32,000 nt of DNA from Pseudothioglobus sp. nBUS_23 (GTDB lineage Bacteria > Pseudomonadota > Gammaproteobacteria > PS1 > Pseudothioglobaceae). The translations under genes and the position numbers were made by a program. The notes under the pieces were generated by a model, which saw only the letters and a program-made list of their open reading frames with translations, was not told the DNA's origin and made no database searches. Below, one piece after another: positions 1,655-7,177 of this stretch (position 1 is the first letter of the stretch; each line of letters begins with the position of its first letter). The stretch lies in contig NZ_CP179200.1 of assembly GCF_051201565.1 (NCBI RefSeq), forward strand, positions 510,001 through 542,000, written 5' to 3'.

Positions 1655-4357
1655 ATGAATAAGATAAAACCATCCAAAATTGAAATTGACTCTATCATTA
1701 ATCTTTTTTCTAATGGGGATTTAGAAAAATGTCTAGAGACTATTGCAATTTTAATCAAAGACTATCCCGAAGAGTCTTTGTTATTTAATATTCAGGGTGC
1801 CTGTTATGCTGCTTTAGGGCAGTCTGATAATTCAGTGAAATCGTATAAAACTGCAATCACTTTAAAGCCAGATTATGCTAAAGCCCATTATAATTTGGGC
1901 GGCATTTTGCATGAAATTGGAAATTTAGATAAATCAGTTCATTCATACGAAAGCGCTCTCAGTATTGAGCCAGACTATGCAGAAGCCCACAACAATCTTG
2001 GCAATGTTTTTAGAGATCTTGGTAATCTAGATGAAGCTGCCAAAAGTTTTGAAAAAGCTTTAACCATTAATCAAGACTACATTGAGGCACGCTATTCACT
2101 TGCGATTGTCCTTCAAAAATTAGGAGATTTAGACTCTATAGATCATTTTGAAAAAGTTCTAGATATGAAACCAGACTTTGCAGAAGCTCACAATAACCTT
2201 GGCGTTGCATTAAAGGACATTGGCCAAGTTAATGAGGCGGTTGAATCATACAATAAAGCTTTAAAAATCAATCCAAATTATGCTCAAGCTTTAAATAATT
2301 TGGGTAATGCTTTAAGAGACCTTGGGAAATTTGAGGATGCAAAAGAAGCATATGAGAGGGCTTTAAGAATTAACGCTGATTATCCAACCCTGCATAATAA
2401 CCTTGGCAATGTTTTAAGAGAACTAGGAAGATTAGAGGAAGCTATTGAGTCATATCAGACTGCAATATCTCTTAATGAAGATAATCCTGATTCGTTTAAT
2501 AATTTAGGAGTAGTTTTTTTTACGCTTGGTGATTTAGATTCTGCAATTAGAGCTTATAAAAAAGCAATAATTATTAACCCAAATTTTGATAATGCACATA
2601 ATAATTTAGGCGCTGCTTATAAAAAAATAGGTGAATTTGATAAGGCGGTTGATTATTATCAAACGGCTTTAGTGATTGACAATCAAAATTTTGAAACTCA
2701 TAATAACTTAGGAAATGCTTGGTCAGAAATTGGAAATTATGATGAGGCAATTAAAAGCTTTAATAAAGCGATCGAAATTAATCCTGATTTCGAAGATGCC
2801 TATAATAACCTTGGGATTACTTTGTTGACGCAAGGAAGAATTGATGATGCATTTAAGTTAAATCAGAAGGCATTATCATTAAATCCAAATTTTGCTGAAG
2901 GGTATGTTTTTCAAGGTCGATTATTTTCTGAAATTGATCAGCAGGAAGAAGCATTAATTAGTTTTGAAAAGGCAAACACAATTAATCCAAAAATTGATTT
3001 TAACTTAAGTTCAATTTTAAATATGAAAATGGATCTTTGTGACTGGGATGGAATTGAAGATTTAGTTAGTGATTTGCCAAGGAAGCTAAATAACAGTGAA
3101 AAATTAATAAGACCTATGCTTTTAAGTGCATTGATTGATGATCCAACGCTTCAACATAAAGCTGCAGAAATATATTCAGAGTTTTACTTCCCAGAAAGCC
3201 ACCTTCTTCCTCAAATTCAAATATATCCAATTTCTTCAAAAACTCGTGTTGGTTATTTTTCTGCAGATTTCAAAGAGCACCCTGTCGCTAATTTGACTGC
3301 TGAACTCTATGAACTTCATGATAGAAATCAATTTGAAATTCATGCGTTTTCATTTGGTCCTGATACAAATGATGCAATGAACCTTCGAATAAAAAAAGGA
3401 GTTGATTACTTTCATGAAGTAAGCGAAATGTCGGATAAAGAAATTGCCATGCTTTCAAGATCTTTAAAGATCGATATAGCAGTTGATTTGGGAGGTTATA
3501 CTGCTGGAGCGAGAACAGGAATTTTTGCTTTAAGAGCAGCCCCTATTCAGGTAAATTATCTTGGGTATTCATGCACAATGGGCGCTAAATATATGGATTA
3601 TATAGTTGCTGACAGAACCATAATTAGTGAAGATCAGAAGATTAACTATTCGGAAAAAATTGTTTATTTGCCTGATTGCTTTATGGTTAATGATACAAAA
3701 GTGGCAAAATCTGAAAAAATATTCAATAAGGCCGAGGCTGGATTACCATCAGATAGTTTTATATTTTGCTGTTTTAATTCTCATCATAAATTTACTGAAA
3801 ATGTTTTTTCTAGCTGGATGAAGATCTTATTGAGCGTTGATAAAAGTGTTTTATGGCTCCCAAGTGGAGATAGATCTGCGTTAAACAACCTTAAAAAGGA
3901 AGCAGAAAAAAAAGATATTGATCCAAACCGTCTGATCTTTGCACCTCGTTTGGATTTAAGGGGAGACCACCTTAACAGAATCAAATTAGCAGATTTGTTT
4001 TTAGATACTCACCCATATAATGCTCACTCAACAGCTAGTGATGCTCTCCAAATGGGGCTTCCAGTTTTGACTTATGAGGGCTCTTCTTTTGCAAGTAGGG
4101 TGGCAACAAGTTTAAATAATGCTCTGCAATTAAATGAGTTAGTTGTTAATTCAGAAGATGAATATATATCTCTTGCAATTGAACTTGCAAAAAAACCTGA
4201 GATGATTCATGCCATTAAGTCTAAATTAAATTTAAATTTATCCACATCCAACTTATTTAATGCTGGAATATTTACTAAAAATATTGAATCTGCTTTTGAA
4301 AAGATGATCGATAGGTCTCAAAAAAAACTTGATCCAGATCATATTTATATTGATTAA
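1655..4357 (+). CDS. TPR-repeat / GT41-family (O-GlcNAc transferase, SPINDLY-like) glycosyltransferase, paralog A
   Basis: 900 aa. The ATG lies 1 nt after the upstream stop. There are about 12 34-aa TPR units with consensus AEAHNNLGNxxxxxGxxxEAxxSYxKAlxInP. The C-terminal ~450 aa aligns by eye (from memory of the sequence) with both catalytic lobes of human OGT: 'RVGYFSADFKEHPVANL' vs 'RVGYVSSDFGNHPTSHL'; 'GARTGIFALRAAPIQVNYLGYSCTMGAKYMDYIVAD' vs '[36 protein letters not shown]'; 'FCCFNSHHKF' vs 'YCNFNQLYKI' (Lys842 equivalent); 'DTHPYNAHSTASDAL' vs 'DTPLCNGHTTGMDVL'. Confidence 0.85.
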   Translation: MNKIKPSKIEIDSIINLFSNGDLEKCLETIAILIKDYPEESLLFNIQGACYAALGQSDNSVKSYKTAITLKPDYAKAHYNLGGILHEIGNLDKSVHSYESALSIEPDYAEAHNNLGNVFRDLGNLDEAAKSFEKALTINQDYIEARYSLAIVLQKLGDLDSIDHFEKVLDMKPDFAEAHNNLGVALKDIGQVNEAVESYNKALKINPNYAQALNNLGNALRDLGKFEDAKEAYERALRINADYPTLHNNLGNVLRELGRLEEAIESYQTAISLNEDNPDSFNNLGVVFFTLGDLDSAIRAYKKAIIINPNFDNAHNNLGAAYKKIGEFDKAVDYYQTALVIDNQNFETHNNLGNAWSEIGNYDEAIKSFNKAIEINPDFEDAYNNLGITLLTQGRIDDAFKLNQKALSLNPNFAEGYVFQGRLFSEIDQQEEALISFEKANTINPKIDFNLSSILNMKMDLCDWDGIEDLVSDLPRKLNNSEKLIRPMLLSALIDDPTLQHKAAEIYSEFYFPESHLLPQIQIYPISSKTRVGYFSADFKEHPVANLTAELYELHDRNQFEIHAFSFGPDTNDAMNLRIKKGVDYFHEVSEMSDKEIAMLSRSLKIDIAVDLGGYTAGARTGIFALRAAPIQVNYLGYSCTMGAKYMDYIVADRTIISEDQKINYSEKIVYLPDCFMVNDTKVAKSEKIFNKAEAGLPSDSFIFCCFNSHHKFTENVFSSWMKILLSVDKSVLWLPSGDRSALNNLKKEAEKKDIDPNRLIFAPRLDLRGDHLNRIKLADLFLDTHPYNAHSTASDALQMGLPVLTYEGSSFASRVATSLNNALQLNELVVNSEDEYISLAIELAKKPEMIHAIKSKLNLNLSTSNLFNAGIFTKNIESAFEKMIDRSQKKLDPDHIYID
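1667..2466. repeat. 800-bp direct repeat, copy 1 (inside paralog A)
   Basis: Line-by-line comparison shows 1667..2466 identical to 4388..5187 (offset 2721) with no mismatch seen. Identity starts a few codons after the two different start codons and ends at '..catatcagactgcaat'. Confidence 0.9.
3281..3424. repeat. 144-bp near-identical patch, paralog A copy
   Basis: 3281..3424 matches 6104..6247 with 1 mismatch (3382 c vs 6205 t). It encodes PVANLTAELYELHDRNQFEIHAFSFGPDTNDAMNLRIKKGVDYFHEVS. The offset is 2823, which is 2721 + 102. Confidence 0.85.

Positions 4358-7177: not shown

Follow-up and report, generated by a model that had tools for sequence, protein, structure and literature searches.

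Two adjacent paralogs of Pseudothioglobus sp. nBUS_23, here called A and B, share a stretch of 800 base pairs (bp) without a single difference. They lie in a window of 32,000 nucleotides (nt; contig NZ_CP179200.1, positions 510,001 to 542,000 of the forward strand), in a tandem array with a third gene, C, and each of the three encodes a tetratricopeptide repeat (TPR) region followed by a catalytic domain of the GT41 family. We interpret the shared stretch, hereafter the head, as the most recent event of a recurrent interlocus gene conversion by homologous recombination among these tandem paralogs, a reading to which we give a probability of about 0.87. The process itself is known; what is added here is a further, well-supported instance of it, from a gene family and a group of organisms that have received little study. 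Positions below refer to the window, that is, the whole stretch of 32,000 nt, and the features on which the argument turns are the following.

1655..4357, plus strand: gene A, 900 amino acids (aa), TPR and GT41, with a distinct 'A type' catalytic body (PF13844, E 1.6e-74)
4361..7177, plus strand: gene B, 938 aa, TPR and GT41, 'B type' (Pfam PF13844, E 2.5e-68)
7178..9586, plus strand: gene C, 802 aa, TPR and GT41; head not homogenised, with 35% aa identity to the A/B head
1667..2466, plus strand: repeat copy 1 (the 'head', about TPR 1-8), A codons 5-271, exact match to 4388-5187
4388..5187, plus strand: repeat copy 2, B codons 10-276, exact match to 1667-2466
3281..3424, plus strand: second near-identical A/B tract, at the start of the catalytic domain; partner 6104-6247, 144 bp, 1 mismatch (101 + 42 bp exact)
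6509..6670, plus strand: near-identical B/C tract; partner 8918-9079, 162 bp, 1 mismatch (140 + 21 bp exact)
6783..6874, plus strand: near-identical B/C tract; partner 9192-9283, 92 bp, 1 mismatch (58 + 33 bp exact)

The exact repeat and its borders

Comparison of positions 1667-2466 with 4388-5187 revealed 800 bp with 0 mismatches and a mismatch directly outside each end. The two copies are direct repeats, 1921 bp apart and offset by 2721 bp, or 907 codons. As the repeat begins 12 nt past the ATG of A (1655) and 27 nt past that of B (4361), it is read in the same frame in both genes; the residues ahead of it are unlike (MNKIK in A versus MKHLNVPSSK in B). Its 3' end falls just past '...SYQTAI', the linker that closes about the eighth TPR. 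Beyond this point, the in-register nucleotide identity of A and B falls immediately to ~55-62%, and their final 420 aa are 55% identical. A first examination of the bare letters (the sequence-only reading) had described a base-for-base identity over 800 bp followed by a strong divergence affecting about half of the residues; the computed comparison bears out the former in every detail and agrees with the latter.

Against a background identity of ~60%, 800 matches in a row are beyond chance. No codon of the tract differs even silently between the copies, synonymous sites being identical over the whole 800 bp. Protein-level selection is thereby ruled out as the cause of the identity, as the sequence-only reading had argued. 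Homogenisation of the N-terminal TPR module, which it had also proposed, is complete (800/800), but the claim that this module alone was affected does not quite hold, since a short A/B tract lies beyond it at 3281-3424. This tract and the two B/C tracts make A, B, and C together a mosaic, and the single mismatches that they carry show events of several ages.

Concerted evolution of the heads

Orthologues with full-length heads were found in another lineage, namely P0067 (903 aa, A-type) and P0001 (936 aa, B-type). Pairwise identities of the catalytic tails and of the heads are discordant:

A and P0067: tail 68%, head 65%
B and P0001: tail 71%, head 62%
A and B: tail 55%, head ~100%
P0067 and P0001: tail 56%, head 83%

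Cross-lineage head identity is 62-65%. The catalytic tail of A is 67-68% identical to that of P0067 and only ~50-58% identical to those of the other array members compared. Judged by these values, A has a distinct catalytic body but a B-like head, and such head/tail discordance is the classic outcome of repeated conversion of one segment. Synteny and the best matches assign the window to Pseudothioglobus-like Thioglobaceae (SUP05/ARCTIC96BD-19 group). At the nearest loci compared by DNA, the conserved flanking genes are only ~70-73% identical to the window at the nucleotide level, and the P0067 contig ends 96 nt into the next gene.

Conspecific material consisted of four metagenome contigs, L161-L164, from four ENA samples, with 97.5-98.3% nucleotide identity to the window. 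These contigs were found with the 267-aa head as a query; a search with full-length B peaked at 66%, short fragments being outranked. Scans of one-genome-per-species contigs and JGI metagenome contigs with protein B returned no conspecific sequence, the relatives reaching at most 60% aa identity in the best segment, and exact look-ups of A, B, and C yielded no encoding contig. The four contigs cover:

L161, window 1523-2281: sulfotransferase tail, A start, head
L162, window 3801-5164: A tail, B start, head
L163, window 2299-5776, ungapped: end of the A head, whole A body, B start, whole B head, 589 nt of the B body
L164, window 4111-5325: A tail, B start, whole B head, 138 nt of the B body

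Between the A and B heads of these wild strains, identity is 97-99.4%. Within L163, the ends of the A head and of the B head differ at 5 of 168 sites. The A head of L161 and the B head of L163 show 4 differences in 615 nt (99.35% identity); each is ~98% identical to the window, from which both depart by eight shared differences. Five head sites (258, 501, 537, 639, and 735) set the two window copies apart from all wild copies that reach the site, in A or B context alike; the one exception is L162 at 639. Since the wild A and B heads thus share substitutions that are missing from both window copies, the heads evolve in concert.

The absence of any difference in 800 bp sets a 95% upper bound of ~0.4% on the divergence of the two window copies, versus ~2% between strains, so the event is much younger than the split. 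These figures clearly point to a fresh conversion in the window lineage after its separation from the L161-L164 strains. As for its direction, the wild B-context alleles at sites 692, 705, and 708 (L162, L163, and L164) and at 756 and 778 (L163 and L164) are missing from window B, which carries at all these sites the alleles of the L163 A copy. With A-type alleles in window B, the latest conversion probably ran from A to B, at least in the 3' part of the head.

We envisage a course of events in which an ectopic gene conversion between the adjacent paralogs A and B would very recently have left the 800-bp footprint. In an in-register transfer by homologous recombination, presumably of RecA type, the ~8 N-terminal TPRs of one gene would have replaced their counterparts in the other, the donor being A for at least the 3' part. 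The event would have spared the initial codons of each gene, its later TPRs, and its own type of catalytic body. This would be the latest of many events, through which A- and B-type heads would be kept in concert in this species and in other lineages, and through which B/C-type tails would swap shorter patches. The abrupt 3' end could reflect either too little identity beyond it for recombination or selection against converting further.

Several points weigh against gene conversion as described here. First, the mechanism, with its dependence on RecA, is inferred. Secondly, the 100% identity is that of the assembled sequence, as opposed to the 97% or more of wild relatives; in principle, a few real differences between the heads might have been lost in polishing. 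Thirdly, on the A side the direction can be read only from the final 168 nt, which L163 provides. Over the first 615 nt, the A and B heads of the wild strains hardly differ, so that either gene could have been the donor there, and distant orthologues are uninformative on the donor (66.4% to A-type P0067 versus 63.7% to B-type P0001). Finally, L161-L164 come from different samples, and some of the comparisons are between strains and not within one genome.

One wild B head, in L162 (838-866; head position 278, window equivalent 4665), carries a TAA nonsense codon. It lies inside a cluster of six differences in 60 bp (head 234-294), five of which are common to L164, a contig without the stop. Pseudogenisation of this B copy, a patch of micro-conversion, or an error of assembly could each account for it.

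Alternative explanations and copy number

Conversions might also occur all along the genes, with only those confined to TPR 1-8 surviving, if the paralogs must show the same distal TPR surface, to a shared partner or within a hetero-oligomer, with proximal TPRs and catalytic bodies that differ. We consider such a selection-kept 'constant region' unlikely, although not negligible. The borders of the repeat speak for it. In the distant lineage L082, a 916-bp exact repeat keeps the heads the same up to about codon 264, no more than about 7 codons from the boundary in the window, and in L083 the head repeat starts at the same 'PS(Q/K)' codon as the window repeat, the contig ending 77 bp later. In the lineage of P0067 and P0001, too, the heads of the two types change together. 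However, heads are not homogenised in several arrays (L090, L095, L160, and L092), and others homogenise their tails instead, with an 850-bp exact repeat in L095 and many tail tracts in L080. These facts are explained as well if the boundary simply lies where the paralogs become too dissimilar to recombine.

It is highly improbable that the head of one gene was placed before the body of another by a fresh partial duplication or by one unequal crossover. Such an origin would fit the A body, which is of another type than those of B and C yet follows a B-like head, and the A architecture and the 3' boundary may well go back to an ancient head swap. Against a new event of this kind, same-length orthologues with heads exist at 35% head divergence (P0067 and P0001), conspecific strains already possess both heads, 97-99% alike, and lineage-specific substitutions are common to both copies. 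The full-length heads already present in A-type P0067, in B-type P0001, and in L161-L164 argue for in-register conversion and not for a new partial duplication. The sequence-only reading had left the choice between a very recent gene conversion and a partial duplication; the shared substitutions and the head/tail discordance favor the former, and the latter falls because both heads pre-existed. In a two-gene array, a single unequal crossover yields a middle gene with the downstream head and the upstream tail, not two identical heads, and is ruled out as it predicts the wrong hybrid. A simple tandem duplication of the 2721-bp unit is likewise ruled out, since it would leave the whole unit identical.

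The weakest alternative is an assembly artefact, whether a chimera or a collapsed consensus, the real genome having one copy or clearly different copies. An exact 800-bp repeat is difficult for short-read assemblers, and related metagenome contigs break at such paralog-shared repeats (end of L083, 7648-7724, 77 bp; end of L095, 13845-13967, 123 bp; start of L099, 1-127, 127 bp), whose lengths are about those expected of an assembly break at a paralog repeat. However, the NCBI record that carries proteins A, B, and C is a contig of 1,794,440 bp, close to a complete genome in this group, and the layout recurs in independent assemblies. The A context (sulfotransferase tail, MNKI(K/T), head) is found in L161 and the head-to-A-body junction in L163, and the B context (A tail, MKHLNVPSS, head, B body) in L162, L163, L164, and the protein fragment P0243; L163 and L164 span the whole B head. 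With all four junctions (X-R, R-Y, Y-R, and R-Z) recurring in L161-L164, the X-R-Y-R-Z layout is independently confirmed. Elsewhere in the array, single mismatches between paralogs were retained. At most a few true differences could have been lost. The chimera that the sequence-only reading had feared is effectively refuted by the 4/4 junctions and the 1.79-Mb source contig, and an artefact of any kind is extremely improbable.

The homology that permits conversion also allows unequal recombination, and the array accordingly varies from 1 to 3 or more copies among relatives. The number of GT41 genes at the syntenic locus is:

1 copy: L136, P0001 contig
2 copies: L080, L087
3 or more copies: L090, L095, L160, P0005 contig

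This copy-number variation is seen between genera only, among relatives ~70% identical at the nucleotide level. The 2721-bp deletion predicted in the sequence-only reading, with an A-head/B-tail hybrid as its product, would indeed be in frame, joining the first four codons of A, the head, and the B body, and the reciprocal expansion between the direct repeats is equally possible. Neither allele was seen in the few conspecific contigs (L161-L164), all of which have the A-B arrangement; the support for the deletion is the variation from 1 to 3 or more copies among distant relatives. No recombinase or integrase domain was detected in the Pfam-scanned window open reading frames (ORFs) of at least 100 aa (17896-18264 and 25573-25992, two ORFs overlapping annotated genes, were outside the scan). 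No simple-sequence tract was found, and the window repeats are direct, not inverted. A site-specific switch is ruled out by the direct repeats and the lack of a recombinase among the scanned ORFs.

The docking of the A and B enzymes on the same partner, also put forward by the sequence-only reading, appears plausible for distal TPRs of the OGT type. A broader scenario, in which TPR 1-8 of catalytically different OGT-like enzymes would be a 'constant region' kept by selection through long-lasting concerted evolution with fixed limits, for a shared partner or mixed oligomers, and the repeats would act as a copy-number switch (in-frame 2721-bp deletion or expansion) varying surface or protein glycosylation in a phage-exposed host, is speculative, and we regard it as doubtful.

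Similar repeats were observed elsewhere. GT41/TPR loci of unrelated phyla (L011, L012, L040, L156, and L014; Planctomycetes, Verrucomicrobia, other Gammaproteobacteria) contain direct repeats of 1-3 kb with 90-99% identity, and high-identity repeats may be widespread in GT41/TPR arrays. Window positions 1-9600 hold dozens of TPR units with a 102-bp periodicity and 60-78% nucleotide identity (families D1 and D2; for example 1868-2317, 4589-5650, and 7607-8161). Genes of the relatives vary by whole TPR numbers (690, 775, 836, 872, 900, 936, and 968 aa), a pattern that points to TPRs being added and lost in frame via the same recombination.

The array, its neighborhood and known systems

Two further features flank the three paralogs:

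1..1653, plus strand: TPR-sulfotransferase gene, cut by the window start (Pfam PF13469, E 8e-44); its stop lies 1 nt before the A ATG
9651..14239, plus strand: DegT-type aminotransferase and RmlB, RmlA, RmlC, RmlD (dTDP-sugar genes; Pfam), directly downstream of the array

A sulfotransferase orthologue occupies the same position in all related loci, and the DegT/Rml gene order is likewise found in L080, L136, L160, and the P0001 and P0005 contigs. As the spacers between the sulfotransferase gene, A, B, and C measure 1, 3, and 0 nt, these genes form one operon.

The identification of A and B as TPR-bearing GT41 paralogs, already made in the sequence-only reading, is supported by PF13844 (E 1e-68 to 1e-74), and the three paralogs score 251.6, 231.1, and 251.8 bits against a cut-off of 25. 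Their N-terminal TPR array is of the OGT type (TPR_1/TPR_11, E down to 1e-110) and aligns to the TPRs of human OGT; the NCBIfam scan gave generic TPR matches only. The best PDB match of B is human OGT (7yeh, E 3e-138), with SPINDLY, XcOGT, and the Thermobaculum OGT also matched. The B motifs 'SADFKDHP', 'TYKITP', and 'NAGTTASD' align to 'SSDFGNHP', 'LYKIDP', and 'NGHTTGMD' of human OGT, and their counterparts in A are 'FKEHP', 'HHKFT', and 'NAHSTASD'. The human residues concerned we take to be H498 (DF..HP), K842 (YKI), and T921/T922. The enzymes are putative protein glycosyltransferases, and A and B would share a distal TPR surface.

Many marine proteins of 465 aa (P0122-P0155) combine a methyltransferase domain (PF08241/PF13649) with a TPR region that matches the A/B head at ~48-49% identity, and OGT-type TPR arrays appear to be joined to several kinds of modifying enzyme (methyltransferase, sulfotransferase).

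The GC fraction is 0.29-0.34 over the sulfotransferase/GT41/Rml region (window 1-16000) versus 0.34-0.43 downstream (16000-32000), where housekeeping genes (Fpg, tRNA synthetases, AroB) are found, and 0.37-0.43 farther on; the former region looks like a compositionally distinct island. At 15947-16348, on the minus strand, lies a gene for an S24 peptidase of 133 aa in which no DNA-binding domain is evident and which resembles UmuD more than LexA. It overlaps the start of fpg by 13 nt, and its position is conserved in relatives. An AT-rich imperfect inverted repeat at 19384-19483 (30-nt arms, 73% complementary, 40 nt apart) separates the divergent genes 18804-19364 (minus strand) and 19492-20091 (plus strand). 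A 275-aa ORF without a Pfam match occupies 20435-21262 (plus strand), and a 172-aa ORF on the opposite strand (20431-20949) overlaps it.

In a streamlined gammaproteobacterium of the sea, the window documents gene conversion that is still under way, cleanly and with independent corroboration. Caution is also called for in annotation and assembly, as OGT-like arrays hold exact repeats of 0.8-0.9 kb that break or mislead short-read assemblies. The sharing of TPR 1-8 by two enzymes with different catalytic bodies provides a lead toward a protein partner or substrate. A search of the full-text literature found no paper on Thioglobus glycosyltransferase islands or on bacterial TPR-GT41/sulfotransferase genes.

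The tufA/tufB pair is the textbook case of concerted evolution in prokaryotic paralogs. The window shares with such systems paralogs that are closer within a genome than orthologues are between genomes, sharp borders, identical synonymous sites, and recurrence. Unlike the usual case, concerted evolution here maintains a single module (TPR 1-8) of two enzymes whose catalytic bodies differ, and the paralogs are adjacent, vary in copy number, and belong to a marine oligotroph of uncultured type. Interlocus gene conversion and concerted evolution of prokaryotic paralogs have been surveyed (PMC6053082), and conversion and duplication driven by repeats in bacterial populations were described in an outbreak study of Mycobacterium tuberculosis (PMC12046097). 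There too, conversion or duplication of near-identical paralogs is visible among very close strains, but that study used long reads of isolates and ours four short metagenome contigs.

With the GT41 enzymes OGT and SPINDLY (human OGT 7yeh/3pe3, Arabidopsis SPY 7y4i, Xanthomonas XcOGT 2vsn, Thermobaculum 5djs), the paralogs have in common a TPR superhelix with an N-N-L-G asparagine motif and a C-terminal GT41 domain of GT-B fold. Unlike human OGT, A, B, and C are without the intervening domain, as in bacterial OGTs, and the His of the human 'GHTTG' motif is a Gly in B and C but a His in A. In contrast to these named systems, the array adjoins dTDP-sugar genes and TPR-sulfotransferases.

Marine bacteria such as SAR11 and Prochlorococcus carry hypervariable glycosylation islands. 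The region studied here resembles them in being low in GC, rich in sugar-modifying genes, and different in content among relatives. Unlike in those islands, the variation is here traced to a concrete mechanism, tandem-paralog recombination, which would offer a sugar-modification island a route to change both its gene content and its copy number.

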